A DNA stretch of 64,000 bases. Origin: a virus. The position numbers and the translations under genes were made by a program. Of this stretch, positions 1 through 46,951 are shown in pieces. Numbering within the stretch: position 1 is the first letter of the stretch; every line of letters begins with the position of its first letter. Location of the stretch: the IMG/VR virus record IMGVR_UViG_3300025120_014869, positions 1 through 64,000 of that record. The stretch is one strand, 5' to 3'. Under the pieces are notes generated by a model that was given only the letters and a program-made list of their open reading frames with translations, ran no database searches and was not told the DNA's origin.

Positions 1-515
1 TCTCTAGGAAAGAAAGGATTATCTTGAGGATGTTGCTGATATTGAAGTTGAAGCATTTTAAATAACGTATCAATCTCTTTAATATACTCTTCATCAACTT
101 CTCTCATACCATCATCTTCAATCTTTGGATTTAATTTTGTACGAGGAATAAAGAAAATTATATCAAGTTTAGTTAAAGATTCCCTTACAGTCGGAATACA
201 TTCACTAATAAAATCCTCATCTATATCTGATATACCTTTATCACAAGCCCATAATGAATATACTAAATTATCTAACGGACATCTATCAAAAATAACTTTA
301 TCATCTGAATCAAATTGATCTAAAGTATTTACCATATAATCTAAAATAGCTTTCTGCGTTTCCTTATTAGTTTCTTTACTATGTTTCAATTCCTTATTAA
401 CGATAATATCGCGATAAGTTTCTTTTTCAAAACCATACATACTCCACTCTTGTAAAAAGTCTTGTATTAAAGTACTTTTACCTAAATTTGCTGATCCACA
501 TACTGCTATTCTCAT
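1..515 (-). CDS. P-loop NTPase / nucleotide kinase-like protein (AAA_28-like), 3' end beyond window
   Basis: Not in ORF track; hand translation MRIAVCGSANLGKSTLIQDF...VIFDRCPLDNLVY: Walker A plus DR motif of dNMP/dN kinase-like proteins; frame open to window edge. Confidence 0.65.
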   Translation of the reverse strand, partial: MRIAVCGSANLGKSTLIQDFLQEWSMYGFEKETYRDIIVNKELKHSKETNKETQKAILDYMVNTLDQFDSDDKVIFDRCPLDNLVYSLWACDKGISDIDEDFISECIPTVRESLTKLDIIFFIPRTKLNPKIEDDGMREVDEEYIKEIDTLFKMLQLQYQQHPQDNPFFPR

Positions 516-9872: not shown

Positions 9873-10610
9873 TTATACTTTTAATGCCATATCCCAGATG
9901 ACTAATTGTAAACGTGGGCTGAATTTTAAACTATGCTTTTTACACATATCAGCTACCATAGATGATTTTGCTGTATGTTCTTCTCTACTACCAGCACAAG
10001 GCATTAACCAAACGTTTTCTCTATTACATATACCGTTATCAATATATTTTTCAAATAATTCTTTCTCATCATCTTCACTATTAATAACAAATTTAAAACA
10101 TTCACCTCTTTTATTATGATGAGCTATAACATCAGGTTTATATCTTCTCTTCTCTGGATCACCATTATTACTCATTTTAGGAGATAAAGTAAATGTAGCA
10201 TTATATTCAGTATACCATTCTTCTTTAGGCATAATAGTACTATTAGATTCAAAATCAATACGAGGTTTAAATCCAAACCTTTCTACAAAAGTTTCTAACC
10301 ATTCAAGTAATCTTTTTTGTTGTAATAAAGGTTCACCACCAGTTATTTTTAATATAGCACCTCTTTTTAATTCTTCATCAAACCCATTATTTGCATAAAA
10401 ATTATTAAGTTCATCAAATGTATATCGATTTTTAACTGACCATGATACAAATGAATCGCAACCATGAGGTGAGTCCGGAGAGGCAAAACCTTGACACGTT
10501 AAATTACACATTGCCATTCTCATAAAAACAGATGGCCAACCGATATATTTACCTTCACCTTCTACGGTATAAAATACATGATCGTCACTTAAAGATAAAA
10601 CATTATTCAT
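9873..10610 (-). CDS. queE: 7-carboxy-7-deazaguanine synthase (radical SAM)
   Basis: VEGEGxxxGxPSVFMR, CNLTC...CDS, ITGGEPLL, SPK, FKFV. Confidence 0.9.
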   Translation of the reverse strand: MNNVLSLSDDHVFYTVEGEGKYIGWPSVFMRMAMCNLTCQGFASPDSPHGCDSFVSWSVKNRYTFDELNNFYANNGFDEELKRGAILKITGGEPLLQQKRLLEWLETFVERFGFKPRIDFESNSTIMPKEEWYTEYNATFTLSPKMSNNGDPEKRRYKPDVIAHHNKRGECFKFVINSEDDEKELFEKYIDNGICNRENVWLMPCAGSREEHTAKSSMVADMCKKHSLKFSPRLQLVIWDMALKV

Positions 10611-11468: not shown

Positions 11469-11705
11469 TTCTCTAAGAGCATCTTCAAAGCTAATAGGTC
11501 TTACTTCAGGACCTTTATCAACTTGTTGTACTTCTTCTTTTGGTAGTTCATTATATAATAATTCTGCCATCTGTTGAGTTACATCATTTTCTAATTTTAC
11601 TAACTTTGGATCTCTTTCACGGGAAACAGGCATACCACTAGATATACCTGTTTGAATTATAGGTGATTTATTTATATTATTTTGATATACATCTTCTAAC
11701 CCCAT
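11451..11705 (-). CDS. Hypothetical protein
   Basis: 84-aa ORF overlapping queD stop. Confidence 0.55.
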   Translation of the reverse strand: MGLEDVYQNNINKSPIIQTGISSGMPVSRERDPKLVKLENDVTQQMAELLYNELPKEEVQQVDKGPEVRPISFEDALRELRDMG

Positions 11706-12373
11706 GATGTCCCTTCAAATGGATTACCCATACCTTTTGTTACTTTATTTTTTAAAGGAGAAGCATATTCTTTCTTTTCTTCAACAGGTGGTTGTACTGG
11801 CTCTTCTTCTTTATTTTCTAAATTTAACTCTTCTTGATTAGGATCTTTAGGATGGGTAGGTAATGTTTTTGCAATTTCAGGATCGACATTGTAATCTAAA
11901 CCTTCTCTAGGAATATAATGCGTTTTATAAACTTTAGCATCATTTTCATAGATGGCACTATTACCTTCATGCTCCCAAACTTCTACCTTAACAACTTCTA
12001 CTCTATCTTTTGTAGTAGATCTAACATAATTATTAACTGCACCGAATACCCATTCAGCAGTCTTTTCAATACCAACTGCTTCCATAATGCGTAAATCAAT
12101 CATAGCTTTACTATCTAAATCTTTAAATGTCTCTAACTCTGGATCATCTTCAGCAACGCAAGTTGTATGATCAAATTGTTTTTCTAATAATTTTTTAATC
12201 TCTTTACAACCACCGAAATCATATACCCAATTATTATCATCAAGTTCGTTTGTTGTAAACCATAACTTACATTGCAATCTATAACCATGTATTAATCTGC
12301 AATGACTCTGAGCCTTCCATTGACGAAAAGCTGTACTACCCATAGGAATTATTTTAGTTGATACGTATCTCAT
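11696..12373 (-). CDS. queD: 6-carboxy-5,6,7,8-tetrahydropterin synthase with C-terminal extension
   Basis: HCRLIHGY, WVYDFG, FDHT, VWEH-NSA; ~75-aa low-complexity tail. Confidence 0.88.
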   Translation of the reverse strand: MRYVSTKIIPMGSTAFRQWKAQSHCRLIHGYRLQCKLWFTTNELDDNNWVYDFGGCKEIKKLLEKQFDHTTCVAEDDPELETFKDLDSKAMIDLRIMEAVGIEKTAEWVFGAVNNYVRSTTKDRVEVVKVEVWEHEGNSAIYENDAKVYKTHYIPREGLDYNVDPEIAKTLPTHPKDPNQEELNLENKEEEPVQPPVEEKKEYASPLKNKVTKGMGNPFEGTSWG

Positions 12374-12453
12374 ATCTAATTATAAGATATTTAATCCAAT
12401 AGTCAACTAGTTGGTGGGAAGAGGAACTCGCATATAATATAATAAATTATATA

Positions 12454-13703: not shown

Positions 13704-14747
13704 ATGTCAGATAAAGTAAATAGTTATGAATGGTTAGGTGAAGACGATGAGCTCACCGGAGAAAAAGATATTATTGCAAAAGAAATAATGGGAGAAGAAT
13801 ATAGTAAGAGTTACTTCCCTCCTATTAGAGTATATGATAATAACGTAAAAGCAGATAAGAAGTATATTTCTTCATTACCTGATTTGCAGAATGGTCCTTC
13901 TAGTTTAATTCAAGGAGCTCCAGTACCTATCCAACAAGTAGGTATACATAATTTTAAATTACCTTTAACTTATAAAAAGAGAGATGGTAAAACTATTGAG
14001 TTAGAGACTAGCGTTACTGGCAGCGTTAGTCTCGAGGCTCATAAGAAAGGTATTAATATGTCTCGTATTATGAGAAGCTTTTATGATCATAAAGATGAGA
14101 CGTTTAGTATTAATAAGATTAAAGATGTATTAGAAACATATAAAAATAATCTTAAGAGTTTTGATTCACGTATTATGCTTAAGATATCTTATCCGATTAA
14201 GCAGAAGAGTTTACGTAGCGGTTTAGAAGGTTTTCAGTATTATGATGTAGTATTTGAAGGTGATCTTACTAAAGATGGAGAGTTTAAAAAGTATATTCAT
14301 TTCGATTTTGTATATTCATCTGCATGTCCTTGTAGTTTTGAATTAAGTGAGCATGCTGAAAAATATCGTAACCGTGCTACTGTACCTCATAGTCAACGTA
14401 GTGTTGCAAGAGTAAGTGTACGTTTTGATGATATGTTATGGGTAGAAGATCTTCAGGAGTTATGTCTTGCAGCTTTACAGACTGAAACGCAAGTTATGGT
14501 TAAGAGAGAAGATGAGCAAGCATTTGCTGAAATGAATGGTTCATTTTTAAAATTCGTAGAAGATGCAGTAAGATTATTATATGAAAAATTAGCTAATGAA
14601 TCTCGTATTAAAGATTTTAAGATTGTAGCTTCTCATAATGAAAGTCTTCATAGTCATAATGCAGTATCAGTTATCGTTAAAGGTGTAGAAGGAGGCTTCT
14701 CAGCAGGTGTTGCTAGAGATGTATTTGAAACTACTGGACTTAGATAA
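13704..14747 (+). CDS. folE2: GTP cyclohydrolase IB
   Basis: IQQVGI, KGINMSR, SACPCS, PHSQRS, VKREDE, FVEDAVR, ESLHSHNA. Confidence 0.93.
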   Translation: MSDKVNSYEWLGEDDELTGEKDIIAKEIMGEEYSKSYFPPIRVYDNNVKADKKYISSLPDLQNGPSSLIQGAPVPIQQVGIHNFKLPLTYKKRDGKTIELETSVTGSVSLEAHKKGINMSRIMRSFYDHKDETFSINKIKDVLETYKNNLKSFDSRIMLKISYPIKQKSLRSGLEGFQYYDVVFEGDLTKDGEFKKYIHFDFVYSSACPCSFELSEHAEKYRNRATVPHSQRSVARVSVRFDDMLWVEDLQELCLAALQTETQVMVKREDEQAFAEMNGSFLKFVEDAVRLLYEKLANESRIKDFKIVASHNESLHSHNAVSVIVKGVEGGFSAGVARDVFETTGLR

Positions 14748-15177: not shown

Positions 15178-15192
15178 GAACAATAATATAAT
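15164..15192 (+). promoter_or_regulatory. sigma70-type promoter with AGGAAC element
   Basis: TTGATA-17-TATAAT-6-ATG(15199); AGGAAC at 15176-15181. Confidence 0.65.
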
Positions 15193-23415: not shown

Positions 23416-23663
23416 TAAGATAAACCGTTGATGTAATTAGTAACTGCAGCTTGCACGTCTGAATAAGTCCAATCGCTGCCATAATTTGCATCACTTAATT
23501 CAGATAAATTTATAAAATTACCATCACTATTTAAAACAACTTGTATTTTTTTAATCCCTGGTGCATCTATTATTCTAGTTATAGATACTTCTGAGTAAGA
23601 TTCAGTCACTGCAGGTTGAGTGGTAACTGTTTTTTCTGCTGATAAAGTCAATGTTAAGCTCAT
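23415..23663 (-). CDS. Hypothetical late protein
   Basis: TAAATA-5-ATG. Confidence 0.6.
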   Translation of the reverse strand: MSLTLTLSAEKTVTTQPAVTESYSEVSITRIIDAPGIKKIQVVLNSDGNFINLSELSDANYGSDWTYSDVQAAVTNYINGLS

Positions 23664-30568: not shown

Positions 30569-30597
30569 TTGATTATTTATAGGAACGTTCATATAAT
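30569..30597 (+). promoter_or_regulatory. sigma70-type promoter with AGGAAC element (DNA polymerase)
   Basis: TTGATT-17-TATAAT-6-GTG; AGGAAC at 30581-30586. Confidence 0.65.
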
Positions 30598-30603
30598 TAA
30601 TAA

Positions 30604-33159
30604 GTGAGTTACCGTAATATATATTATGATTCGAGAGAAAGATGTGTCCATTTGTTTACTTGGGATAAAGATGGTAAAAGAATTAAAGTTACCAATTCGT
30701 TTGACCCTTACTGCTATTTAGAAGGTAAAGGAGATGCTGAGTCTATATATGGTACTAAATTAGTTAAGAAAATTTTCAATACTCAGTATGATAGATATAA
30801 GTATTTGAAAGATACTAATATAAAAAGAGTTTTTGAAAACTTACCTGCAACTCAACAGTACTTAGTTGATACTTTTTGGAAAGAAAATGAGAAGCCTGAG
30901 TTTAGTAAAAACCCTATTAAAGTTTTATTTTTAGATATTGAGACTTATTCACCCGATGAGTTTCCTAAACCTGCTGACCCGACTCATACAGTTAATGTTA
31001 TAACTTGTTTTGACTCATTAAACGGTAGATACACAACTTTTGGTTTAAAAGACTACGATAATAAAGATGATGATGTAGTATATCATAAATGTGAGTCTGA
31101 AAGAGATTTATTTAAAAAGTTTGTAATGTATATTGAGAAGGATTATCCGGATATCATGAGTGGATGGAATTCTGAATTTTTTGATTTACCGTATATTTTG
31201 AATAGATGTACTAGAATACTTGGCGAAGAATGGACTAATAGATTATCTCCTTCTGGTAGAGTTTATAGCAGAACTATAAAAGGTATGTTTGGTGTAGAAC
31301 AAGTTAGATGGTATATTGAAGGTATGTCGTTAATTGATTACTTAGATGTATATAAACGTTTTTCAGTCGGTGTTAAAGAAAGTTATAAGTTAGATAATAT
31401 CGGTGCTACTGAGTTAGGAGAACAGAAAGTAGATTTTGGTAATATGAATCTTGCAACGCTATCAGATAATGATTGGCAAACGTTTGTAGAATATAATATT
31501 CAAGACGTTAGACTGCTAGCTAAGTTAGAAGAAAAACTAAAGTATACTGAGCTTATTAAAATGTTAGCTTATGTTGGTTTAACTACGTTTGAAGCTGCTC
31601 TAGGTTCATTATCGGTTATTAATGGGGCAACTGCAGTAAGGGCAAGATATCGTGATCAAAAGATTCCATCGTTTATACGAAATGAAGATACAGGTAAAAA
31701 TCCTGGTGCCTATGTTGGTGAACCTTTGAAAGGATTTCAAGAAAATATTATATCTTTTGATGCTAATTCTCTATATCCGAATGTGATGATATCTCTTAAT
31801 ATGTCTCCTGAAACTAAAGTAGCTAAAATAGAAGATAAAAATAATTCTGAGATAGTTTTAAGACATGTAAATGGTCAAGTGTTTAGTTTAAAGCATGATA
31901 AATTTTTAGAGTTCTGTAAAAAAGAGCAGATAGCTATTAGTAAAGCAAACGTTTTATTTACTCAAAAACGTAAAGGGGTTATGCCTGAAATTTTAGACTA
32001 TTATTATAATGAAAGAGTTAAAATTAAAAAAGAACTTGGTACTATAAAAAGAGAGTATTCTAAAACTAAAAACGATAAACTTAAATTTAAAATAGAACAA
32101 CTTGATGCTAAGCAGTTGTGTATAAAAGTTTTTATTAATTCAATTTATGGTTATTTTGGTAATAAAAATGCACCGTTTGGGGATGATGATATTGCTTCAT
32201 CAATTACTTTAACTGGTCAATCAGTTATTAAAAAATCTAATGATTTATTAAAAGAATATATAAAACGAAAAACTAAAATAGAAGATGATAAAATCCTTAA
32301 TCAATGTATTGTATATAACGATACTGATAGTAGTTATATTTCAGTTAAGCCTCTTATTACAGCTGGTCTTTCGTTTACTGGTGATGACGGTAAATTAACT
32401 CAAGAGTTTTTTAATGAGGTACAAAATATTGAAGACTTCTTAAATGATGAAATTAAAGTATGGGGTAGAAAAGCTCTAAATAGTAGAGATTGTAGATTCG
32501 TGTTTAAACGTGAGGTAATTGCAGATGTAGGTATCTTTCTACAAAAGAAAAGATACGTTCTTCACATATTAGATGATGAAGGTATACCTATGGATAAGTA
32601 TAAGTATACCGGAGTAGAAGTAGTAAGAAGTACTATGCCTGATGCTATTAAACCTCATGTTAAAAATATTATTGAAACTATGCTTTCAACTCAAAATATT
32701 GGTGAGACTAATAAAGCATTAGATAACGTTTATAAAATTTTTAAAGATCTACCTGTGGAAGATATAACGTTTGTATCAGGTATTAAAGGTTATGAAAGAT
32801 ACGCAGGTCAATGCGATGGTTATAAAACTGCTAAAGGTATGCCTATTCACGTTAAAGCAGCATACTTCCATAATTTAATTTTAAAAAGACTTGGAGTTGA
32901 GAATAAGTATGAAACTATCAGTTCAGGTGATAAGGTAAGATACTTCTACGTAGAGCATCCTAACCCTTATAATTTATCATGCATTGCTTATAAGTATTAC
33001 TACCCTGAAGAGTTTAAGAAAATATTTCATGCAGATTATGATAAGATGTTTGAAAAGATTCTATATAATGTAATTGAAAGATTTTATGATAACGTTAATT
33101 GGACTCCTCAGAAACCTGGTAGTGCAGTTCAGACTAATTTATTTGAACTCTTAAGTTAA
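30604..33159 (+). CDS. gp43: Family B DNA polymerase gp43
   Basis: DIET, FDLPY, YNIQD exo motifs; DANSLYP, KVFINSIYG, YNDTDS, KKRY. Confidence 0.96.
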   Translation: MSYRNIYYDSRERCVHLFTWDKDGKRIKVTNSFDPYCYLEGKGDAESIYGTKLVKKIFNTQYDRYKYLKDTNIKRVFENLPATQQYLVDTFWKENEKPEFSKNPIKVLFLDIETYSPDEFPKPADPTHTVNVITCFDSLNGRYTTFGLKDYDNKDDDVVYHKCESERDLFKKFVMYIEKDYPDIMSGWNSEFFDLPYILNRCTRILGEEWTNRLSPSGRVYSRTIKGMFGVEQVRWYIEGMSLIDYLDVYKRFSVGVKESYKLDNIGATELGEQKVDFGNMNLATLSDNDWQTFVEYNIQDVRLLAKLEEKLKYTELIKMLAYVGLTTFEAALGSLSVINGATAVRARYRDQKIPSFIRNEDTGKNPGAYVGEPLKGFQENIISFDANSLYPNVMISLNMSPETKVAKIEDKNNSEIVLRHVNGQVFSLKHDKFLEFCKKEQIAISKANVLFTQKRKGVMPEILDYYYNERVKIKKELGTIKREYSKTKNDKLKFKIEQLDAKQLCIKVFINSIYGYFGNKNAPFGDDDIASSITLTGQSVIKKSNDLLKEYIKRKTKIEDDKILNQCIVYNDTDSSYISVKPLITAGLSFTGDDGKLTQEFFNEVQNIEDFLNDEIKVWGRKALNSRDCRFVFKREVIADVGIFLQKKRYVLHILDDEGIPMDKYKYTGVEVVRSTMPDAIKPHVKNIIETMLSTQNIGETNKALDNVYKIFKDLPVEDITFVSGIKGYERYAGQCDGYKTAKGMPIHVKAAYFHNLILKRLGVENKYETISSGDKVRYFYVEHPNPYNLSCIAYKYYYPEEFKKIFHADYDKMFEKILYNVIERFYDNVNWTPQKPGSAVQTNLFELLS

Positions 33160-33677: not shown

Positions 33678-34778
33678 ATGAGTAAAGAAATTGATGATGT
33701 GTTATCTGTAATAGATAAAAGTAATCCGTATGCTTCCTTTTTAAATGAAAGTGCTCTTAGCAACGTTGATGGTTGGTTAGATACCGGGTCCATGGTACTG
33801 AATGGTATAGTATCAGGTTCACTTTTTGGAGGTATACCTAAAAATAGAATGACCCTTTTAGCTGGACCTAGCATGACTGGTAAGAGTTTTATCTTACAGA
33901 AGATATTAGCTAATGCGCAGAAAGAAGGTATTACACCTGTTATATTTGATAGTGAAAATGCTATTGATAAAGAAGGTGCTGCTGCATTAGGTTTAGATGT
34001 AAGTAAAGTAAAATATGTACCTGTTTTTAGTATTGAAGAATGTCGTAATACTATTTTTGACTTCCTTACTAAAGTTAAAGAAAAAGGTCAAGAAGGTAAG
34101 TTTATTATAGCTATTGATTCGTTAGGTAATATGGAGAGTCAATTGCAGATTAATCGTCAGACAAAAGGTAATGTAAGTGCTGATATGGGTAGTAGAGCTA
34201 AAGCTATGAAATCTTTACTACGTACTCTTACCCAATTATCTGGGTTAACTAAAACTACTATTCTAGCTACTAATCATATCTATGAAGACCCTGCCGCATT
34301 ATTTCCATCATTAGTTAAAGCAATGCCTGGAGGTACTGCTACTGTTTATCTACCTTCAGTTACTATTCAGTTAGCTCGTAAGCCTGTTAAAGAAGATAAA
34401 AATACTGATGGTAAGTTAGCTGTTGGTCAAAAGAACTATTCAGGTGTTATATTAAGAGCGTTAACTGTAAAAAATAGATTTGTAAAGCAATACTTGCAAG
34501 GTGAAATGTATCTATCATTTGATAAAGGTCTTAATAAGTATTACGGTTTATTAGACTTAGCAGTAGGTTTAGGTGCTGTTATTCAGACCGGTTCTACTTA
34601 TCAATTACCTGATGAAACAAAATTAGGTTATTATTCAAAATGGAAAGATAATACGGAACTGTGGGATAATACTATTATACCTGTTATAGAAGAAAAGATT
34701 AAACAAGAATGGAAATATAGTAATAAATCAGAGGAAGAAGAATTAATACCTGATGAAGTAGATCATGAAGAAGAATAA
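33678..34778 (+). CDS. uvsX: RecA-like recombinase UvsX
   Basis: DTGSMVLN, GPSMTGKS, FDSENA, IDSLGN, ADMG, TNH, GG. Confidence 0.92.
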   Translation: MSKEIDDVLSVIDKSNPYASFLNESALSNVDGWLDTGSMVLNGIVSGSLFGGIPKNRMTLLAGPSMTGKSFILQKILANAQKEGITPVIFDSENAIDKEGAAALGLDVSKVKYVPVFSIEECRNTIFDFLTKVKEKGQEGKFIIAIDSLGNMESQLQINRQTKGNVSADMGSRAKAMKSLLRTLTQLSGLTKTTILATNHIYEDPAALFPSLVKAMPGGTATVYLPSVTIQLARKPVKEDKNTDGKLAVGQKNYSGVILRALTVKNRFVKQYLQGEMYLSFDKGLNKYYGLLDLAVGLGAVIQTGSTYQLPDETKLGYYSKWKDNTELWDNTIIPVIEEKIKQEWKYSNKSEEEELIPDEVDHEEE

Positions 34779-35514
34779 AATAGTAATAACGTTAAGCGGT
34801 GGAATGGACTCTGCAGTTCTTTTATATAAAGCTGCAGAAGAATATAATGAAGTACATACTGTTACTTTTGATTACGGTCAAAGGCATCATAGAGAATTAA
34901 TTTCTGCAGAGAAGCAACTCTTAAATGTTCGTCATGATTTTCCTAATGTAGTTTTTACTAATAAAATATTAGATGCAAAATATATTAAAAATATAGCACC
35001 GGTATCATCTCTTACTAATGATGATATTGATACCCCTAATGTTAAGGATGTGATGGGTGAAGCTCAGCCGAAAAGCTATGTACCTTTTCGTAACTTAATG
35101 TTTTTAAGTATCTTATTATCATATGCTGAAGCTTTAAAAGCAGAGGAAGTTTGGTACGGTGCAGCAGAAGCTGATAGTTTAGCTGGTTACTGGGATGGCT
35201 CCGTTCAGTTTGTTGATAAAATGAATCAAATATGTTTATTAAACCGGGAAGTCGATGTAAGAGTTAGAGCTCCTCTCTTAGAAATGAGTAAGAAGGAAAT
35301 TATTTTAAATGGTATTGAATTAGGTGTTAATTTTGCTGATACTTATACCTGTTATTCCGGAGAATATCCTTGTGATGCTGAATCAGCAAGTAGTGCATTA
35401 AGACTTAAAGGGTTTGTAGATGCAGGTTTTAGAGATCCTTTAGTATATAAACAGCAGGATAAGCTTAATAAAGTTTACGATAGTAGCAATTGTAAGAATA
35501 TAGTTACTGACTAG
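34765..35514 (+). CDS. queC: 7-cyano-7-deazaguanine synthase QueC, divergent
   Basis: SGGMDS PP-loop, FDYGQRH, SSLT, YVPFRN, TYTCY; C-terminal Zn motif degenerate. Confidence 0.85.
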   Translation: MKKNKIVITLSGGMDSAVLLYKAAEEYNEVHTVTFDYGQRHHRELISAEKQLLNVRHDFPNVVFTNKILDAKYIKNIAPVSSLTNDDIDTPNVKDVMGEAQPKSYVPFRNLMFLSILLSYAEALKAEEVWYGAAEADSLAGYWDGSVQFVDKMNQICLLNREVDVRVRAPLLEMSKKEIILNGIELGVNFADTYTCYSGEYPCDAESASSALRLKGFVDAGFRDPLVYKQQDKLNKVYDSSNCKNIVTD

Positions 35515-36785
35515 TAACCGTGTCTAAACATTCTTTCAATTTGATGATGCCTATGCATCTCATTTCTACCTCTTTCAATCATATCTATATTAATTTGTTG
35601 AGGTGATAATGCAATTTCTTCATTATCTTCTTCAGATTCTGATTCTACTTCATCATTATATACTTTCATAAGACTTTTATAAGTTTCAGGTGATTTACTA
35701 TGCAAATCTTTTAAAACTTTTTTAGCTTCTTCTTCTTTACCTTTTTTAAGTAATTCGTAAAATGTATCGTGTAAATCAATTACTTCATTATCTTCTTCTT
35801 CATCACAAGTTTCTTCATCACTTTTTCTTAATTTACCTGTAACTGGGCATCTTTCTGCATCTTCTTCTTGATCTTCATCTGAATCATCTTTTTCTTCAGA
35901 TTTTTCCATTGCATCAGCAATAGCTTGACCTCTATTTTTTTCATACTCTGAAAGTTCACCGTCATTATCAAGATCTGATTTTTCTTTATCTATTTCAGCA
36001 TCTTCTTCATGACTATGACCACCAATAGGTTGATCAGGGTCTATAGATTCATCTCCAAACATTGTAGCTAATTCACGAGGATCCATTCTTTCGTCATTAT
36101 AAACGTTACCTGGATAATCTTCTTCACCTTCTGGAAAGTCTGCTACTAATTTTTCTCTGGTACCCATGTCTATCTCTCCACCAAACTTATCAACCGTTTC
36201 TGTTTCACTTGGTTTAACAATAACAACTGATACGATGTCTTTTTTATCAATATCATCTAAATTGATTTTGGTACCTTTGAAATTATTAAGAGTTACTCTG
36301 TATTTTAAACCATCTTTTACAATTGAATAAAGATCATTATCACCAACATCTCCTTCTGATCTTAATACAGCATCATCACCTAAATTAAGTTGTAATGTTT
36401 CGAAACCTGTATCACCTCTTTTAAGATCACTTTCGGCAGCTCCTTTTTCTCTAGTAGTAATTTTAATATCACCTCTTGTAGCTAAAGGTTTAGATACGTT
36501 AGAAACGATATTAATAGCTTGTTGAACATCATCATCAGAAAGACTTTCAATATCTAACTCAGGATTTTGCTTTTGCAAAAATCTAATTACTTTAGTAGCA
36601 AAATATCTTGGTGTCATTGTACCTTTTAAATTTCTTATATCTTGCATACCCATTAATTTTGCTCTCAATGGATCTGATATTTTCTTACCCCTTGCTTCTT
36701 CAACAACGTCGTAATCTTGACCCATCATATAATTAGATGTATCTTCAACAATAATCTTTTTTTCTTTCCAGTTATCTAAACTCAT
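35511..36785 (-). CDS. Acidic late protein with EF-hand-like loop (possible internal head/core protein)
   Basis: TAAATA-5-ATG; DLDNDGELSEYE; repeated EED[AN]E. Confidence 0.65.
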   Translation of the reverse strand: MSLDNWKEKKIIVEDTSNYMMGQDYDVVEEARGKKISDPLRAKLMGMQDIRNLKGTMTPRYFATKVIRFLQKQNPELDIESLSDDDVQQAINIVSNVSKPLATRGDIKITTREKGAAESDLKRGDTGFETLQLNLGDDAVLRSEGDVGDNDLYSIVKDGLKYRVTLNNFKGTKINLDDIDKKDIVSVVIVKPSETETVDKFGGEIDMGTREKLVADFPEGEEDYPGNVYNDERMDPRELATMFGDESIDPDQPIGGHSHEEDAEIDKEKSDLDNDGELSEYEKNRGQAIADAMEKSEEKDDSDEDQEEDAERCPVTGKLRKSDEETCDEEEDNEVIDLHDTFYELLKKGKEEEAKKVLKDLHSKSPETYKSLMKVYNDEVESESEEDNEEIALSPQQINIDMIERGRNEMHRHHQIERMFRHGY

Positions 36786-36829
36786 AATATTATTTATTGA
36801 ATTTTGATAATTTTATACTATAATAAGTT

Positions 36830-37501
36830 ATGTGCGGAATATTTTGTAGTAATGATCTTAATACGTTTGAAGTATTAGAACAAGCAAATAGAAAAAGAGG
36901 TAACTTTTCTACAGGAATATTTTATATGTATAATACGTCTACATATAAAATTATCAAAAAGGAAGGCGGGTTTAATTTTGATGATAATACTCTACCACAT
37001 GGCAAAGGGTTTTTATATCTTGGGCATAATCAAGCTCCTACTCAAACAGGTAGACAATGGGAAGATGTTAATTCTCATCCCTTTTCATATGGTGATTGGT
37101 TTGTAGCTCATAATGGAGTTATAACTAATTTTGATGAATTAGTAGATAATCATTCTAAATTTCATACCAATCCTGTAGATTCTAGTATTATACCAGGTTT
37201 ATTAGACGAATTTGAATATGCTAAAGGACCTTGTGAAAACCCAAAAGATGAACAAAAATTGATAAAAAGAGTATTAGAAAAATTAGAAGGTACATTTGCT
37301 GTTTGGATTGTTAATATTAAAACTATGAATGTTTATATAGCAAGACAAGGTAGTACTTTGTTTTATAAAGGAAGTAATATATCATCTGTTAAAGGTAAGC
37401 ATTATAGAGAAGTGAAAGAAGGTATATTATATAGTTACTCTTATGAAGGTTTAACTAAAGTTAATACTTTCAAGAATAAATCACCATTTTTAACGTTATG
37501 A
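36830..37501 (+). CDS. Class II (Ntn) glutamine amidotransferase
   Basis: N-terminal MCGIF, RG, GHNQAPT, NSHPF, AHNGVI, DS. Confidence 0.88.
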   Translation: MCGIFCSNDLNTFEVLEQANRKRGNFSTGIFYMYNTSTYKIIKKEGGFNFDDNTLPHGKGFLYLGHNQAPTQTGRQWEDVNSHPFSYGDWFVAHNGVITNFDELVDNHSKFHTNPVDSSIIPGLLDEFEYAKGPCENPKDEQKLIKRVLEKLEGTFAVWIVNIKTMNVYIARQGSTLFYKGSNISSVKGKHYREVKEGILYSYSYEGLTKVNTFKNKSPFLTL

Positions 37502-37989
37502 ATATAAGACAAGCAAAATTAAAAAATTTACAAGAAATAGAAAAAATACATTTTATGCATTTTGTGTATAAAAATACTGATTCATTTATAATGAATACAT
37601 TCGGCCATGTATGGTCTAGTAGAGATTGGTGGAATAAATTTCCTATACAAGTATGTTTAGATGAAAATAATAAAGTTTTAGGATTACATGCATATACAGT
37701 TAATGATAAAAAACCTAAAACTCTTAAAACGTATTATATAGTAACTGAAAAAAATACAAGAGGTAAAGGTATTGCAAGAATACTAATAACAAATGCTATT
37801 ATCGAAAATAAAGATAAGGTAGATAATTACTATGTTAATACTGATAAGAATAGTGATGGAGCTTTATTTTATTTGAAATGGTTAGGTAATAATTTTAAGA
37901 AAGAAAAGAATGATTTTAATTCAGAAGATATGATCTTCGAGGAACCGATTTATAATATAATAGATGAAGAAGCTAAAGACGACAGGTAA
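37498..37989 (+). CDS. GNAT-family acetyltransferase
   Basis: Motif A VTEKNTRGKGIARILI; NSDGALFY. Confidence 0.7.
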   Translation: MNIRQAKLKNLQEIEKIHFMHFVYKNTDSFIMNTFGHVWSSRDWWNKFPIQVCLDENNKVLGLHAYTVNDKKPKTLKTYYIVTEKNTRGKGIARILITNAIIENKDKVDNYYVNTDKNSDGALFYLKWLGNNFKKEKNDFNSEDMIFEEPIYNIIDEEAKDDR

Positions 37990-38302
37990 ACCGCGTCAGT
38001 TTGATACTGGTGCTCAAAGAGATGCTGCAGATGATAAACTTCGTATGAGTTTAGTCCCTCATAAAGCTCTTAATGATGTTATGATGAGATACTTGCAAGG
38101 TGCTAATACTTACGGAGAAAATAATTGGAAAAAAGGTATGAAGCATTCTATACTATATGATAGTACTATGAGACATTTAATGCAAGACTTTACAGGAGAT
38201 GATAGTGAAGATCATTTAGGAGCTGCATTATGGAATGTTATGGGTATGATATGGAATAGAGATAATCGAAAAGATATGGATGATAGGAAAGATTATGAGT
38301 AA
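37964..38302 (+). CDS. dATP/dGTP diphosphohydrolase (DUF5664-like)
   Basis: FDTGAQRD, KLRMSLVP, GANTYGENNWKKG, RHL, EDHLGAALWN. Confidence 0.82.
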   Translation: MKKLKTTGKPRQFDTGAQRDAADDKLRMSLVPHKALNDVMMRYLQGANTYGENNWKKGMKHSILYDSTMRHLMQDFTGDDSEDHLGAALWNVMGMIWNRDNRKDMDDRKDYE

Positions 38303-38960
38303 AATTTTAATAGCTGGTACAGGTAAAGGTAAAAAAGAGAACATGCCTTTATATAAATCTTTTAATGAACGTAATTTTAAAAACGCTGACATTAAAATTA
38401 AAGAAAATAATACGCAAAGTTTACAGAAAGTATATAACAATTTTTTGGCATACGCGAGAGATAATGGCTATAGTTATCTCATTCTTATTCATGATGATGT
38501 TTATATTAATTGCGATGATCTTGAGCATAGGGTCTATAAAAGTGGTGAGAAATATCCTGTTTTCGGTCTTGCTGGTACTAATACTTGTCGTCTCGATGGT
38601 CATGGCCTATGGCACTTAATGGGTGATCAATCAAACTTAAGAGGGTGTGTAGCTCATGGTAACCCAGATAAATATCATTATACTTCTTTCGGACCTATAC
38701 CTGATAGAGTTATTTTAATTGATGGAGTTTTAATTGGTATAAATCTAGAAAAGTTTTCTGATAAGGTTAAATGGGATGAAAGTTATCCGTCAAGATTTCA
38801 CTATTATGATCTTGATTTTTGTTTAGAGTGTAATCATAATAAGGTAGCAGTAGGTGTAGTGGATATACCTATCATTCATGAAAGCCCTGGTTTAACAAGT
38901 CCTAATGAAGAATTTTATAAAGGTAAAGAATATTTTAGAAATAAATGGAACAATCGATAA
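38295..38960 (+). CDS. GT-A fold glycosyltransferase-like protein
   Basis: YN, LIHDDV, GLAG, LIDGVLI, FHYYDLDFC, HESPG; likely start MSKIL. Confidence 0.75.
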   Translation: MSKILIAGTGKGKKENMPLYKSFNERNFKNADIKIKENNTQSLQKVYNNFLAYARDNGYSYLILIHDDVYINCDDLEHRVYKSGEKYPVFGLAGTNTCRLDGHGLWHLMGDQSNLRGCVAHGNPDKYHYTSFGPIPDRVILIDGVLIGINLEKFSDKVKWDESYPSRFHYYDLDFCLECNHNKVAVGVVDIPIIHESPGLTSPNEEFYKGKEYFRNKWNNR

Positions 38961-40285
38961 GTAGATTAAATTTAGATTATTATGAAGAAGTAATAATTTA
39001 TAAGAGTTTAACAAATGAGCAATATTTAGGGAAAATTATTGATCATTTAAAACCTGAGTATTTTAATAATAAGAATATTAAACAGATCTTTACTTTAATT
39101 AAAGATTTCTATATTAAACGTTCTACGTTACCTACTGTAACTGAAATTAAATCTTATCTTATTAACGATGAATTAAAATCTAGTTTTTTGCAAGTAGTAA
39201 AGAATTTTGCTAATATAGATAAAAATTTTAATGATAAAGAATTAGAATCTAATACTGAACGTTTTTTAAAAGAAAGGGCTATCTATAATACTATGCTTTC
39301 CGTTGCTGAGGATGTATCTTCAGGTAAAGTAGATACTAGTTATATTTTAGATAGTTTTGAAAAAAGCTGTAACGTTAATTTACAGAGTGAATATGGTTTA
39401 GATTTATTTGATGATATAGATGAATTAATTAAAGATCTTAATACTGAGCAACCTACTATACCTAGTGGATGGGAGTTTTTAGATAAAAAGATAGATGGTG
39501 GGTTTATGGAGAATGGTAAAGCTTTATATGTATTCGCAGGTGAAACTAATGTTGGTAAAAGTATATTTTTAGGTAATATAGCTTGCAATATAGCAAGACA
39601 AGGTAAAACGGTTTTAGTTATTAGTTTAGAAATGCCTGAACTTGTATATGCTAAACGTTTATCATCTAATATTACAAGAATACCTATGAGAGATTTAAGA
39701 GTAGAAAGTAAAAATCTAAGATTTCAAATAGATGCTCATAGTAAAGGTAATCCTGAAAGTAAAATACTTATTAAAGAGTTTCCTCCTAATACTGTAACTC
39801 CTCAAAATATTCAAGGTTATTTAACTGAATTAAAAAATAAAGGGATTGAATTAGATGCTATAGTTTTAGATTACCTTAATCTATTAAAGAGCCATGAAGG
39901 TAGTAATTCATATGAAAGAATTAAACATATAACTGAAGATGTAAGAGCTTTAAGTTATGTATTTGAATGCCCTATTATATCAGCTACTCAATTGAATCGA
40001 TCTGGCTATGATGAAGAAAATCCTGGTTTAGATACTATATCTGAATCAATTGGAATGGCTGCTACTGCTGATTGTATTTTTAGTATTTTTCAAGATGAAG
40101 AAGATAAAGAACTTGGTATAGTTAAAATGGGTATTATGAAAAATCGATTCGGTGCTAACTTCGGAAATACATCTTTACGTATTGATTATGATACGTTAAC
40201 AGTATCAGAAGATGAGATGTTAAACTCTGATTCAGGAGGTGATCTATCTGGTTTAACTGATACGTTGAGCGTGTTGAGTAATTAG
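38945..40285 (+). CDS. gp41: Replicative helicase gp41 (DnaB-like)
   Basis: GETNVGKS, SLEM, IKEFP, VLDYLNL, ATQLNR, SES, KNRFG. Confidence 0.93.
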   Translation: MEQSISRLNLDYYEEVIIYKSLTNEQYLGKIIDHLKPEYFNNKNIKQIFTLIKDFYIKRSTLPTVTEIKSYLINDELKSSFLQVVKNFANIDKNFNDKELESNTERFLKERAIYNTMLSVAEDVSSGKVDTSYILDSFEKSCNVNLQSEYGLDLFDDIDELIKDLNTEQPTIPSGWEFLDKKIDGGFMENGKALYVFAGETNVGKSIFLGNIACNIARQGKTVLVISLEMPELVYAKRLSSNITRIPMRDLRVESKNLRFQIDAHSKGNPESKILIKEFPPNTVTPQNIQGYLTELKNKGIELDAIVLDYLNLLKSHEGSNSYERIKHITEDVRALSYVFECPIISATQLNRSGYDEENPGLDTISESIGMAATADCIFSIFQDEEDKELGIVKMGIMKNRFGANFGNTSLRIDYDTLTVSEDEMLNSDSGGDLSGLTDTLSVLSN

Positions 40286-41590: not shown

Positions 41591-41608
41591 GAGGAACGTA
41601 TCTATAAT
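41580..41608 (+). promoter_or_regulatory. sigma70-type promoter with AGGAAC element (gp32)
   Basis: TTGAAA-17-TATAAT-6-ATG; AGGAAC at 41592-41597. Confidence 0.65.
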
Positions 41609-44431: not shown

Positions 44432-45295
44432 GTGAAAGTTTTAATTTTAGGTAAGGGATATATATCTAATTTTCTGGTAGATATTTTTAAAGGTAAAGGT
44501 TATAAGGTAGATAATTTTTCTAGAAAAGAATTAGATTATACTGATGACGATGAACTTTATAGTGTTATATCAACAGAACCATATGAAGCAGTAATTAATA
44601 CAGCAGGTTTTACAGGAAAACCTAACGTTGATGAATGTGAAGTTAGAAGACAAGAATGCTTTAATTTAAATGTAAAGTTACCTAAAACAATAGAAAATAT
44701 ATGCAAACTATGCGACGTAAATTTCGTTCATATAAGTTCAGGTTGTATATATACAGGGTATGAAAAGGAATATACTGAAGAAGATGAACCTAACTTTGGA
44801 TTATTTAACGATGAGGCTAGTTTTTATAGTAAAACTAAACATGCTGGAGAAATGATGTTAGATGATCAATTTACTAATATTATTCGAATAAGAATGCCTA
44901 TAGAAGATAAATTATCTCCTAAAAATTTATTAACTAAATTATTAAAATATGATTTTCTTATTGATTTTGTGAATAGTAAGACAGATGTGTATAAATTAAG
45001 TGAGTTTGTATTTACTGTAGTTGAAAACTTTAAAGCTGGTATTTATAATGCTGTACATAGCAACCCTCTTTCGACGAAAGATGTTGTAGAAATTTTAAAA
45101 GAATATGAATTAGTTAACGAAAATTGGAATTTTATACCTTATGATGAATTAGATATTAAGGCTAATAGAAGTAATTGTGTTCTTAATAATGATAAATCAT
45201 ATGATGACTTTAATTTTGAGTGGGGAGATGAGGAAACTTACTTAAGACTTAACGCATCGTTAATTTCAAATAGAGAAAAATGGAATGATAAATAA
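44432..45295 (+). CDS. NDP-4-keto-6-deoxyglucose epimerase/reductase (RmlD/NRS-ER-like)
   Basis: GxGYI, AGFTGKPNVDECE, SSGCIY, FYSKTK, RIRMP. Confidence 0.8.
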   Translation: MKVLILGKGYISNFLVDIFKGKGYKVDNFSRKELDYTDDDELYSVISTEPYEAVINTAGFTGKPNVDECEVRRQECFNLNVKLPKTIENICKLCDVNFVHISSGCIYTGYEKEYTEEDEPNFGLFNDEASFYSKTKHAGEMMLDDQFTNIIRIRMPIEDKLSPKNLLTKLLKYDFLIDFVNSKTDVYKLSEFVFTVVENFKAGIYNAVHSNPLSTKDVVEILKEYELVNENWNFIPYDELDIKANRSNCVLNNDKSYDDFNFEWGDEETYLRLNASLISNREKWNDK

Positions 45296-45755
45296 TAAAC
45301 AAGAAATATTAGGGTTTACTGCAGGTAATTTTGACCTACTGCATCCAGGTTATATATACACGTTTGAAGAAGCAAAAAGACATTGTGATAAATTTATAGT
45401 GTTTTTACAAAGAGATCCTTCTCAAACTAGATTTACAAAATATAAACCTGTTATACCGTATTATGAACGATATAAAACATTAATGGCTATCCAATACATA
45501 GATGATGTTTATATGTACCAAACTGAAGAAGAACTTGTAGAATTAATTGCTTTCTTTAAACCTGATATACGTATATTAGGAGAAGATTATATAGGTAAAA
45601 AATTTACAGGTCATGATATCTTTATAACGCATAAGATACATCCACCTAAAGTCATATATACAACAAGATCGCATGAATGGTCTACAACAAAGATTAAAGA
45701 TTTAATTACAAGACAAACATTAAAACAAAATCCTGATATTTTAAAAGATGAGTAA
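45285..45755 (+). CDS. TagD-like cytidylyltransferase
   Basis: AGNFDLLHPGY, KPVI, ER, LGEDY, STT. Confidence 0.8.
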   Translation: MINNKQEILGFTAGNFDLLHPGYIYTFEEAKRHCDKFIVFLQRDPSQTRFTKYKPVIPYYERYKTLMAIQYIDDVYMYQTEEELVELIAFFKPDIRILGEDYIGKKFTGHDIFITHKIHPPKVIYTTRSHEWSTTKIKDLITRQTLKQNPDILKDE

Positions 45756-46701
45756 AAAAAACATATTAGTAACTGGAGGGTATGGATTTATCGGTGGTAA
45801 TTTTATACGATTCCTTAAAGACAATTTTGATCATAATATAGTATGTGTAGATAAGAACGGTTATGCTTCTAATCCGGAATATATTAAAGGTATATGTGAT
45901 GAAGAATATGAGATTGATATTGCAAGACATACCAATGCATTAGAAGAAGTATTTAAAACGCATGATAAATTTGATTATATTTTTCATTTAGCAGCTGAGT
46001 CACATGTAGATAATAGTATTTCAGGTCCTACTGAATTTGTTTATTCTAATGTATTAGGTACGCAAAATCTATTAGAGCTATTCCGTAAACAAGAATATGG
46101 TAAATTTATACATATAAGTACTGATGAGGTTTACGGTCACTTAGGTTATAACGATCCATCATTTACAGAGGATAGTCCTATTGCACCTCGTTCTCCCTAT
46201 GCTGCAAGTAAGGCATCAAGCGATCTCATGTGTTTAAGTTATATTGAAACGTTTCAAAGTAATATATGTATAACAAGGTGTTGTAATAACTATGGACCTA
46301 ATCAGAATGCGGAAAAATTTATACCAACTATAATTAATAGTTTAAAAAATGGAAAGAAAATTCCAGTATATGGTGAAGGGTTAAATATTCGGGAATGGAT
46401 TCACGTGCATGATCATTGTTTAGGTATTTGGGCAGTTGCAACAAAAGGTAAAAAAGGTATATATAATATAGGATCTGGTTTTGAAATCTCTAATATTGAA
46501 TTAGTTGATTGTATTTGTCGTAAAATGGGTAGAGATATTGATGATAGTGTTAAGTTTGTTAAAGATAGATTAGGACATGATTTTAGATATAGTATTGATA
46601 GCACAAAATTAGATAATGAATTGTTATTTGAATTAAATTATCCTAATTTTGAAGATGAGATAGCAAAAGTTGTTGAGTATTATGAAAATCCGACAAGGTG
46701 A
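45748..46701 (+). CDS. rmlB: NDP-glucose 4,6-dehydratase
   Basis: TGGYGFIG, AAESHVD, STDEVYG, YAASK, NNYGP, REWIHV, DRLGHD. Confidence 0.92.
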   Translation: MSKKNILVTGGYGFIGGNFIRFLKDNFDHNIVCVDKNGYASNPEYIKGICDEEYEIDIARHTNALEEVFKTHDKFDYIFHLAAESHVDNSISGPTEFVYSNVLGTQNLLELFRKQEYGKFIHISTDEVYGHLGYNDPSFTEDSPIAPRSPYAASKASSDLMCLSYIETFQSNICITRCCNNYGPNQNAEKFIPTIINSLKNGKKIPVYGEGLNIREWIHVHDHCLGIWAVATKGKKGIYNIGSGFEISNIELVDCICRKMGRDIDDSVKFVKDRLGHDFRYSIDSTKLDNELLFELNYPNFEDEIAKVVEYYENPTR

Positions 46702-46951
46702 AGTGTTTGCATGTCATCACGGGCCTTATGCAGGTCAGATGTTTTGTTTCATTAATAGAAATAAAAAGGAACTGTTATATAATTTTCTTAGAATGCCTGA
46801 AATGATAACTACTTCAATATCACAAAAAGATTTTGATGATGGGTTAGATAAAGGTATAATAAAATTAGTTGAGAAAGTACCAAAGTACGTTTTTCAAGTA
46901 ATTGAAGCACAATATAAGAAAAATGAAAATACTGACGATAGACGGAAATAA
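46670..46951 (+). CDS. Hypothetical protein
   Basis: ORF coupled to neighbours. Confidence 0.55.
   Translation: MLSIMKIRQGEVFACHHGPYAGQMFCFINRNKKELLYNFLRMPEMITTSISQKDFDDGLDKGIIKLVEKVPKYVFQVIEAQYKKNENTDDRRK

Follow-up and report, generated by a model that had tools for sequence, protein, structure and literature searches.

Why would a phage carry genes for QueC, a stand-alone glutamine amidotransferase (Gat), a GNAT acyltransferase, a DUF5664 protein and a GT-A glycosyltransferase between uvsX and gp41? The window analysed here, a stretch of 64,000 nucleotides, comes from an uncultured marine T4-like phage and is part of a 78,260-bp contig estimated to be 37% complete. The original prediction was that the cluster directs a new 7-deazaguanine hypermodification of DNA, and our results uphold its assignment to a 7-deazaguanine DNA-modification system: relatives encode DpdA3, and in them GNAT and GT-A remain in linkage with que genes. 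We put the probability at about 0.6 that this region supplies the tailoring and nucleotide-pool functions of a DpdA3-type system, in which a preQ1-derived 7-deazaguanine takes the place of guanine in phage DNA. The system is of a known kind. Its nearest known relative is that of Flavobacterium phage immuto_2-6A, whose DNA carries the preQ1 derivative fdPreQ1 (PMC10516641), and not a DpdA-less or an archaeosine system.

Gene order and the preQ0 pathway

The module is flanked by uvsX (33678-34778) and gp41 (38945-40285). All five genes were found between them where they had been proposed, each exceeding the gathering cut-off of its Pfam family. The proposed overlaps are also real: 4 nt for Gat/GNAT, 26 nt for GNAT/DUF5664, 23 nt for DUF5664/GT-A and 16 nt for GT-A/gp41; uvsX and QueC overlap by a further 14 nt. 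Since the order uvsX-QueC-(antisense ORF)-Gat-GNAT-DUF5664-GT-A-gp41 is repeated in 18 relatives fetched via Gat, and parts of the module occur in most of 62 loci fetched via a distant GT-A homologue, the arrangement is not due to chance. In cyanophages uvsX lies directly beside gp41, and the module is therefore an insertion into the replication core.

QueC, the preQ0 synthase (34765-35514, plus strand; PF06508, 173.6 bits), exceeds the NCBIfam equivalog cut-off for QueC (TIGR00364, 157.9 versus 150.3). The three que-type genes proposed at 9.9-14.7 kb were confirmed by profile matches. They encode a FolE2-type GTP cyclohydrolase I (13704..14747, plus strand; PF02649, 244.6 bits), the CPH4 synthase QueD, which has a C-terminal tail (11696..12373, minus strand; PF01242, 68.2 bits; phrog_2389; 1.6e-33 to immuto QueD), and the 7-carboxy-7-deazaguanine synthase QueE (9873..10610, minus strand; phrog_2076, 152.5 bits, with a weak radical-SAM Pfam match). 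With all four of these established enzyme families present, the phage would be expected to convert GTP to preQ0. Alignment to PDB 2pg3 and 3bl5 indicates that the last two Zn-site cysteines of QueC are substituted (C...C-D-A-E-S-A-S-S), and this 'SASS' variant is common to the window and immuto_2-6A.

DpdA3, QueF, kinase and phosphoribosyltransferase in relatives

The observation that the window holds no DpdA or TGT was borne out and extends to the whole contig, where DpdA3, QueF and a phosphoribosyltransferase (PRTase) were not found; we infer their presence in this phage from its relatives. The suggestion of pre-replicative incorporation did not hold in so far as it did away with DpdA, since the clade encodes DpdA3, located outside the partial contig. 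G001, an 88%-complete relative collinear with the window, carries a DpdA3 (2.2e-77 to immuto, 3.9e-64 to CP220 and 2.8e-15 to phiST CGPG_00065). Its operon also encodes an AAA_28 kinase and a bimodular QueF. The same trio is present in the 100%-complete genome G006, and both relatives also encode a Gpt-like PRTase. Based on these genes, we assign the system to the complete-replacement DpdA3 type. The DpdA3 of the clade is 51% identical to the immuto protein and 49% identical to that of CP220. In DpdA3 phages 100% of G is replaced, DpdA3 activity was not demonstrable in E. coli, and infected cells were seen to contain the ADG nucleoside (PMC10516641). QueF would convert preQ0 to preQ1, and DpdA3 would insert the base into DNA.

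Among IMG/VR DpdA3 loci, AAA_28 lies alongside in 74 of 80 and QueF in 71 of 80. In immuto, CP220 and this clade the P-loop kinases adjoining DpdA3 are homologues of each other; the kinase resembles the ribosylnicotinamide kinase domain of NadR. By similarity, the edge of the window cuts through the gene for a second P-loop kinase paralogue of AAA_28 type and leaves its N-terminal part (3..515, minus strand), with 68.6% identity to G001 53553-54317 (PF13521) and 31.6% identity to the protein named 'thymidylate kinase' beside DpdA3 in immuto_2-6A. Of 50,697 phage records only 30 had a homologue of the Gpt-like PRTase; Campylobacter (14), Cellulophaga (5) and Flavobacterium (4) phages account for 23 of these records, and the three counts equal those of the DpdA3 matches.

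A GNAT in the position of DpdN

The GNAT N-acyltransferase (37498-37989, plus strand; PF00583, 26.9 bits) has an invariant RGxGxA motif, and its AF2 model (pLDDT 81) matches RimI, Nat, SpeG and PAT, generic amine N-acetyltransferases only. In sister phages, the same slot is occupied by a PF00551 protein (116.6 bits; 2.2e-37 to immuto DpdN) that is, judged by its sequence, a clear orthologue of the preQ1 formyltransferase DpdN. The gene following Gat is GNAT in 15, DpdN in 11 and neither in 6 of the 32 distinct Gat sequences. Well-supported branches of the Gat tree require at least four switches between GNAT and DpdN, and the Gat nearest to that of the window comes from a DpdN-type phage. Further, the deep-branching G006 has a second, divergent GNAT (PF00583, 28.5 bits) between DpdA3 and AAA_28, precisely where immuto, L095 and L105 have DpdN.

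Because QueF is conserved in relatives and GNAT alternates with DpdN, the substrate of GNAT should be preQ1. The exchange at this slot suggests that GNAT transfers an acyl group, most probably acetyl, to the aminomethyl nitrogen of preQ1, whether preQ1 is then still a free base or already part of DNA. This would be the same nitrogen that DpdN formylates in sister phages and immuto_2-6A. The predicted product is thus an N-acetyl-preQ1-type base, 7-(acetylamino)methyl-7-deazaguanine. Among the derivatives originally proposed, an acylated deazaguanine is now the best prediction, and a GNAT in place of the formyl-adding DpdN predicts a DNA base described by nobody so far.

Gat, DUF5664 and GT-A

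Gat (36830-37501, plus strand; PF13522, 34.1 bits; PF13537) is a stand-alone class-II (Ntn) glutamine amidotransferase domain with an N-terminal MCGIF and an HNG oxyanion motif within AHNGVITN, similar to the N-domains of GlmS, PurF and AsnB. It adjoins QueC in the distant lineages L158, L159, L162 and L167, and in the complete genome G007 both Gat and QueC are absent. Its nearest homologues in cultured phages are mixed, belonging to amidoligase/ATP-grasp systems and to Gat-QueC fusions, all at 25-34% identity; in Flavobacterium and Campylobacter phages no homologue of Gat or GT-A was found. Gat most likely supplies ammonia to QueC. As its glutaminase partner it would complete an asparagine-synthetase-like split enzyme, and the nitrile nitrogen would therefore come from glutamine.

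The stand-alone DUF5664 protein (37964-38302, plus strand; PF18909, 68.7 bits; phrog_801), a predicted dNTP pyrophosphohydrolase, is the best-conserved protein of the module (83-87% identity). It shares 27-43% identity with homologues in cultured phages, and many phages whose DNA is ordinary also have members of the family. Characterised relatives belong to Z-genome phages, namely the stand-alone protein of Arthrobacter phage Wayne, which converts dATP, dGTP and dUTP to dNMPs, and the DUF5664-DUF550 fusion of Acinetobacter phage SH-Ab 15497; the characterised enzyme favours dATP over dGTP about tenfold (PMC12884076). The protein studied here resembles that of Wayne in being a stand-alone PF18909 protein of about 110 aa in a purine-replacing phage, but it is linked to deazaguanine rather than 2-aminoadenine and its activity is predicted. 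By analogy, it would cleave dNTPs, dGTP probably among them, to dNMPs, and canonical G would therefore compete less. dNTP hydrolases of three unrelated folds adjoin DpdA3: MazG-type (immuto, L105, phiST), HD (CP220) and DUF5664 (L095/L096, between DpdA3 and AAA_28).

GT-A (38280-38960, plus strand; PF13712, 42.3 bits) has an invariant H71-D72-D73, and the best PDB match of its AF2 model (pLDDT 94) is majastridin-UDP (2qgi; TM 0.71). Its homologues number 239 in metagenomes and 0 in cultured phages. It is a real nucleotide-sugar transferase and may add a sugar, to the deazaguanine or to another acceptor. Three overlapping NDP-sugar genes in the replication module (44432..46701, plus strand), encoding an RmlD-like reductase (PF04321), a cytidylyltransferase-like protein (PF01467) and a 4,6-dehydratase (PF01370/PF16363), are a possible source of the donor. 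In relatives, cupin genes and a cytidylyltransferase related to that of the window flank GT-A. Unlinking of the GNAT and GT-A genes from que genes in relatives, named beforehand as evidence against the original prediction, was not seen.

Comparison with known systems

The likeness to the fdPreQ1 system of immuto_2-6A extends beyond DpdA3 and the Zn-less QueC to QueF (1.4e-73), the kinase by DpdA3 (4e-19), the PRTase (3.5e-10), a dNTP pyrophosphohydrolase as part of the system and, in sister phages of the window, a true DpdN orthologue. In contrast to immuto, this phage has GNAT instead of DpdN, DUF5664 instead of a MazG-type NTP-PPase and FolE2 instead of FolE; Gat and GT-A are extra, and the genes are spread over three or four loci of a T4-like genome rather than forming one cluster. 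The dADG system of Campylobacter Firehammervirus CP220, also of DpdA3 type with 100% replacement, shares a T4-like genome, a homologous kinase directly downstream of DpdA3 (3.4e-29), a Gpt-like PRTase and a dNTP-hydrolase-like (HD) gene upstream of DpdA3. However, CP220 QueC retains the Cys Zn site, the pathway reportedly stops at the amide (ADG), no QueF was found within 9 kb on either side of its DpdA3, and no homologue of Gat or GT-A was found. Enterobacteria phage 9g, which makes dG+, likewise ties a class-II amidotransferase to QueC in a preQ0 pathway, but there the two are fused, the transglycosylase is DpdA1 and replacement is about 25%, whereas in this clade they are split, relatives have DpdA3, and QueF and an acyltransferase are present.

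Alternative explanations

The 9g precedent raises the question of whether the split Gat and QueC make the archaeosine base, in which case the DNA would contain dG+, as originally proposed, or G+ carrying an acetyl group or a sugar. The linkage of Gat and QueC over deep divergence fits this, as do the matches of both proteins to phrog_10428, a fused Gat-QueC-type family, and the annotation of some phage homologues of Gat as archaeosine synthase or Gat-QueC. We nevertheless consider it highly unlikely, because an NADPH-type bimodular QueF beside DpdA3 is conserved across the clade and GNAT shares its slot, in alternation, with an enzyme acting on preQ1, DpdN. DpdN-type phages have Gat too, immuto makes fdPreQ1 without any Gat, the two genes are separated here by an antisense ORF, and the transglycosylase is DpdA3 rather than DpdA1. 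Even harder to credit is a role of the que genes as auxiliary metabolic genes that raise queuosine in host or phage tRNA while phage DNA stays unmodified. The preQ0/preQ1 pathway is indeed that of tRNA queuosine, and the window has no transglycosylase; but the DpdA3 proteins of relatives are 49-51% identical to those of phages with demonstrated 100% G replacement, sister phages have DpdN orthologues, no bacterial-type TGT (PF01702) was found in G000-G004, and the module is embedded among replication genes and has a promoter-like element that also precedes gp43 and gp32.

Two other questions concern the route and the sugar. A Gpt-like PRTase and/or base exchange on dGMP could make a deazaguanine nucleotide for phosphorylation by AAA_28 and incorporation by the phage polymerase, with DUF5664, MazG or HD proteins destroying dGTP; on this view DpdA3 would have an auxiliary role or act on nucleotides, and GNAT would tailor the base or nucleotide ahead of polymerisation. 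A dNTP hydrolase (DUF5664 or non-homologous), a P-loop kinase and a PRTase do accompany DpdA3 in several lineages. The three hydrolase folds, the kinase homology, the matching PRTase counts and the published DpdA3 observations cited above agree with such a route, and the deoxyribose-5-phosphate base-swap enzyme of Z-genome phages is a precedent. Still, we regard it as rather unlikely: DpdA3 belongs to the TGT superfamily, the published interpretation is post-replicative exchange, and guanine salvage (exchanged G to GMP to GTP and again to FolE) fits the PRTase and kinase equally well. G007 has a PRTase homologue without DpdA3, and DUF5664 is missing from the complete genome of G006. It is quite conceivable, on the other hand, that GT-A, perhaps together with the sugar genes, has nothing to do with the base, acts on a host envelope glycan, phage protein or other nucleotide, and is merely co-located in an early/middle operon. 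In G007 a 43% identical GT-A lies beside Tmk, ThyX, GMP reductase and a MazG-like gene, with no DpdA3, que genes or Gat; marine T4-like phages have many LPS-type sugar genes (PMC7029224); and the chemistry of acetyl- or formyl-preQ1 suggests no obvious hydroxyl acceptor. Against this, a 4-nt overlap joins Gat to GT-A in lineages where the site is without GNAT, DpdN or DUF5664, the gene order QueC-Gat-(x)-GT-A is kept down to 40% QueC identity, GT-A always lies within a replication or nucleotide-metabolism module and never in a tail-fibre/LPS cluster, and no ThyA-family hydroxymethylase that could provide an hm-pyrimidine acceptor was found.

Antisense ORF and promoter-like element

Between QueC and Gat lies an acidic, D/E-rich ORF of 424 aa on the minus strand (35511-36785), overlooked in the original prediction. 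It has no match in Pfam, PHROG, NCBIfam or phage proteins and is probably not a pathway enzyme. TAAATA stands 6 nt upstream of its start, in keeping with a late gene, and many relatives as well as the deep lineage G006 have a minus-strand ORF at the same position. A promoter-like element, AGGAAC-N5-TATAAT (37940..37956, plus strand), ends 7 nt ahead of the DUF5664 start. With at most one mismatch it occurs at 11 sites in the window against 1.24 expected, a count reached in 0 of 100 shuffles, and these sites also precede queE (10617-10633), gp43 and gp32.

Results and discussion

The window covers positions 1-64,000 of a 78,260-bp IMG/VR contig (GC content about 29%; 37% complete by the CheckV estimate). 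It comes from an uncultured phage, seen only in metagenomes, that belongs to a deep-branching lineage of marine T4-like phages. Its uvsX and gp41 proteins share only 31-33% identity with their nearest counterparts in cultured (cyano)phages. Since uvsX and gp41 are adjacent in those phages, the intervening 4.2 kb of the window (34765-38960) represents an inserted module. The original prediction placed QueC, a glutamine amidotransferase (Gat), a GNAT protein, DUF5664 and a GT-A glycosyltransferase here, and all five are present, each scoring above its Pfam cut-off. The overlaps that it described were also seen, as successive genes share 4-26 nt and the last runs into gp41. Together with FolE2, QueD and QueE, which lie at 9.9-14.7 kb as predicted, QueC completes the preQ0 set in the window. 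Scanning IMG/VR with Gat recovered the same gene order in 18 loci at 55-95% identity, and a 43%-identical GT-A used as the query added 62 further loci, including deeper lineages. The order QueC-Gat-(x)-GT-A is kept down to 40% QueC identity, and QueC and Gat abut in that deepest lineage.

No DpdA or TGT gene had been recognized in the window, and this absence extends to the whole contig: neither DpdA3, the transglycosylase of the TGT superfamily, nor QueF was found on its 78 kb, which are only part of the genome. A search with the Pfam TGT model (PF01702) gave no match in the contig or in four relatives; the model is not sensitive enough to detect DpdA3, and a phmmer search with the DpdA3 of Cellulophaga phage phiST (CGPG_00065) succeeded. 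It matched ORF 22771-23577 (2.8e-15) of G001, a relative of 185 kb that is 88% complete and whose 54-150 kb region is collinear with the window. The G001 protein shares 51% identity with the immuto_2-6A (Flavobacterium phage) DpdA3 and 49% with that of Campylobacter phage CP220. Its operon also encodes a bimodular QueF and a P-loop kinase-like protein of the AAA_28 type. Among DpdA3 neighbors in IMG/VR loci, AAA_28 was found in 74 of 80 and QueF in 71 of 80. The DpdA3/AAA_28/QueF trio is also encoded by G006, which represents a deep lineage and is a complete genome (184.5 kb, with terminal repeats), and contig 3300027791_000013 carries both DpdA3 and the Gat cluster. Based on the trio in these relatives, the clade has the DpdA3 "complete replacement" system described by Cui, Hutinet et al. 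in 2023 (PMC10516641). Judging from the gene content of the relatives, the trio of the window's phage probably just falls outside the contig, past its left end. The clade is abundant in marine viromes: GT-A has 239 homologues, and DpdA3 is encoded on no fewer than 92 stretches of IMG/VR. Two large ORFs of the window, of 404 aa (12454-13668) and 424 aa (35511-36785), were considered as a hidden DpdA and rejected, being charged, of low complexity and without a family or phage match. Similarly, the DpdA3-like gene of Bacillus phage BSTP12, annotated as "NadR", proved to be a misannotation and not a DpdA3-kinase fusion.

DpdN, the PurN-like formyltransferase of the fdPreQ1 subtype (immuto_2-6A), was not found in the window, where GNAT occupies its slot. 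In sister phages this slot holds a PF00551 protein of 173-182 aa (116.6 bits; 2.2e-37 to immuto DpdN), which by sequence is a clear DpdN orthologue. The main-clade architecture reads Gat-[GNAT or DpdN]-DUF5664-GT-A-gp41. When 32 distinct Gat sequences were placed on a tree, the phages with GNAT (15) and those with DpdN (11) were intermingled. At least four exchanges of one enzyme for the other are required by the well-supported branches, and the Gat nearest to the window's belongs to a DpdN-type phage. Independently of this, G006 encodes a divergent GNAT (PF00583, 28.5 bits; weakly alignable to that of the window) between DpdA3 and AAA_28, which is the position of DpdN in immuto and in the relatives' loci L095 and L105. 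The window's GNAT (PF00583) has an invariant R88-G89-x-G91-x-A93, corresponding to the Q/RxxGxG/A acyl-CoA motif. Its structural model matches RimI, SpeG and PAT, a similarity to generic amine N-acetyltransferases that is compatible with this role and not specific for it. The proposed target of DpdN is the aminomethyl nitrogen of preQ1, to which it would add a formyl group (PMC10516641). The GNAT in its slot is accordingly best interpreted as an enzyme that acylates this nitrogen. By analogy, the product is best read as the acetyl counterpart of fdPreQ1, with N-acetyl-preQ1 as the base. Eight 7-deazaguanine DNA bases are known (PMC10516641), and this would be the ninth. A literature search for an acetylated deazaguanine DNA base found nothing, and the words acetyltransferase and glycosyltransferase do not occur in the 2023 DpdA3 paper (PMC10516641). 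At least four swaps of acetyl and formyl enzymes at one locus in close relatives look like arms-race diversification of the side chain, in line with recent work in which host DNA glycosylases distinguished one deazaguanine side chain from another (bioRxiv 10.1101/2025.10.29.685425).

We also asked what Gat contributes. It is of the class-II (Ntn) type, with an N-terminal MCGIF, the oxyanion motif AHNGVITN, and matches to PF13522 and PF13537. In the genomes sampled it occurs only where QueC does, and it adjoins QueC in distant lineages. QueC is an asparagine-synthetase-type PP-loop ATPase and Gat is of the matching N-terminal domain type, and the most economical reading is that the two form a glutamine-dependent QueC. 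Immuto makes fdPreQ1 without any Gat. It is also possible that Gat functions in archaeosine (G+) formation or is coupled to GT-A, with which it overlaps by 4 nt in lineages lacking GNAT, DpdN or DUF5664 at the site. However, the known dG+ system has a fused Gat-QueC and no QueF, whereas in the window the two genes are separate, parted by an antisense ORF, and the clade keeps QueF. Specific kinship of Gat with the Gat-QueC fusions was considered and dropped, as its nearest cultured-phage matches mix amidoligase/ATP-grasp and Gat-QueC proteins at 25-34% identity and are not diagnostic. The window's QueC lacks the last two zinc cysteines and shares the "SASS" variant with that of immuto; since immuto carries fdPreQ1, QueC of this type must still yield preQ0. 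The conservation of QueF and the alternation of GNAT with DpdN argue for preQ1, and not archaeosine, as the substrate. The deazaguanine hypermodification originally proposed is thus partly supported: the evidence favors a DpdA3/preQ1-type system with acyl tailoring, most likely not reached by an archaeosine route. The region is best read as an acetyl-type tailoring arm of this system, with Gat and GT-A as two conserved partners.

GT-A matches PF13712 (42.3 bits) and has an invariant H71-D72-D73, corresponding to the acidic metal/NDP-binding motif of the GT-A fold. Its model (pLDDT 94) superimposes with a TM score of 0.71 on the majastridin-UDP complex, the closest UDP-binding GT-A protein, and an ESM Atlas search returned only unnamed viral PF13712 clusters. 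Sugar-nucleotide genes flank GT-A in relatives. In the window, an NDP-deoxysugar operon lies 5.5 kb downstream of it, where three overlapping plus-strand genes (44432-46701) encode an RmlD-like reductase, a cytidylyltransferase-like protein and an NDP-hexose 4,6-dehydratase between gp32 and an RNase H-like 5'-3' exonuclease of the replication module. A hydroxymethylpyrimidine acceptor for GT-A was rejected, as the genomes G000 and G001 encode no member of the ThyA/hydroxymethylase family (PF00303). Nor is GT-A exclusive to deazaguanine phages. The complete 248-kb phage genome G007, which has no que genes, Gat or DpdA3, encodes a 43%-identical GT-A among nucleotide-metabolism genes: its locus L193 (L193:2582-10623; 102.5-110.6 kb of G007) contains GMP reductase/IMPDH, DUF5662, ThyX, Tmk, GT-A and an unassigned 421-aa ORF. 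This run is possibly a further module for the modification of nucleotides or DNA. It also contains a 100-aa ORF that has no Pfam match and whose N-terminus resembles MazG on visual inspection, and a 700-aa ORF that is SbcC/gp46-like as judged from its N-terminal sequence only.

DUF5664 is the best-conserved protein of the module (68.7 bits to PF18909; cut-off 27). The stand-alone DUF5664 of phage Wayne converts dATP, dGTP and dUTP to dNMPs (PMC12884076), and the window's protein is predicted to be a dNTP pyrophosphohydrolase. PDB sequence searches with DUF5664 and AAA_28 returned no match. In another lineage (loci L095/L096) DUF5664 lies between DpdA3 and the kinase; in immuto, L105, phiST and CP220 the corresponding position is filled by a hydrolase of the MazG or HD type. 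A Gpt-like phosphoribosyltransferase (PRTase) is encoded by G001 (locus L020:3423-3887), CP220 (163878-164249), phiST (28221-28625) and immuto (31955-32287). A search of 50,697 phage records with the G001 protein found homologues in only 30, and 23 of these are Campylobacter, Cellulophaga or Flavobacterium phages in counts matching the DpdA3 hits. Among cultured phages the PRTase therefore co-occurs almost perfectly with DpdA3; the word phosphoribosyl is absent from the DpdA3 paper (PMC10516641). The co-occurrence of DpdA3 with the PRTase, the kinase and dNTP hydrolases from non-homologous families offers a testable handle on how these phages reach 100% replacement.

The PRTase, kinase and dNTP hydrolases fit a nucleotide-level, pre-replicative route, and they fit equally well a recycling of the guanine released by exchange. 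We considered a joint reading, to which we give a probability of only about one in five, that DpdA3 phages replace guanine at the nucleotide level and that the base of the marine clade is both acylated and glycosylated. The nucleotide would be made by the Gpt-like PRTase, by base exchange on dGMP, or by both, and AAA_28 would phosphorylate it while the interchangeable DUF5664, MazG or HD enzymes destroyed dGTP. A swappable acetyl/formyl cassette would supply the acyl group, and the Gat-coupled GT-A would add a sugar in the marine clade. The first part of this joint reading would cover Campylobacter CP220, Cellulophaga phiST, Flavobacterium immuto and the abundant marine T4-like clade. If true, the published view that all deazaguanine insertion is post-replicative would be wrong for the DpdA3 class, and the DNA would contain the first glycosylated, acylated deazapurine. 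GNAT, DpdN, GT-A and DUF5664 are small and soluble-looking, and thus testable without phage culture; they are also possible tools for modified DNA.

A promoter-like element, AGGAAC-N5-TATAAT, lies at 10617-10633, 12422-12438, 15176-15192, 30581-30597, 37940-37956, 41592-41608 and 46767-46783 and, with one mismatch, at four more sites, giving 11 occurrences at up to one mismatch where 1.24 would be expected. The distance from the end of the element to the start codon is 6-7 nt for queE, DUF5664, gp43, gp32 and ORF 15199. This spacing suggests leaderless middle transcripts that would co-regulate the que and pool genes with replication genes.

Several ORFs near the que genes were also noted. The antisense 424-aa ORF between QueC and Gat (35511-36785, minus strand), which the original prediction did not mention, is acidic, of low complexity and late, and a TAAATA sequence precedes its start by 6 nt. 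Many relatives also have a minus-strand ORF here, as does the deep lineage G006 (346 aa), and G001 has two. The window's ORF may encode a packaged or anti-defense protein. Adjoining QueE is a 216-aa protein (9219-9869, minus strand) without a Pfam family, which PHROGs assigns to "ferredoxin" (phrog_3704, 349 bits) but which lacks a cysteine cluster. No other protein is as well conserved: its sequences in the contig and in G001 are 98.6% identical. In G001, genes for spermidine synthase and S-adenosylmethionine decarboxylase (64404-65593; L023:4404-5593) are inserted between this gene and QueE; the window lacks them. The 404-aa ORF between QueD and FolE2 (12454-13668, minus strand) is K/E-rich, belongs to no family and is 38% identical to its G001 counterpart, and the plus-strand AGGAAC-N5-TATAAT site at 12422 is directed into it.
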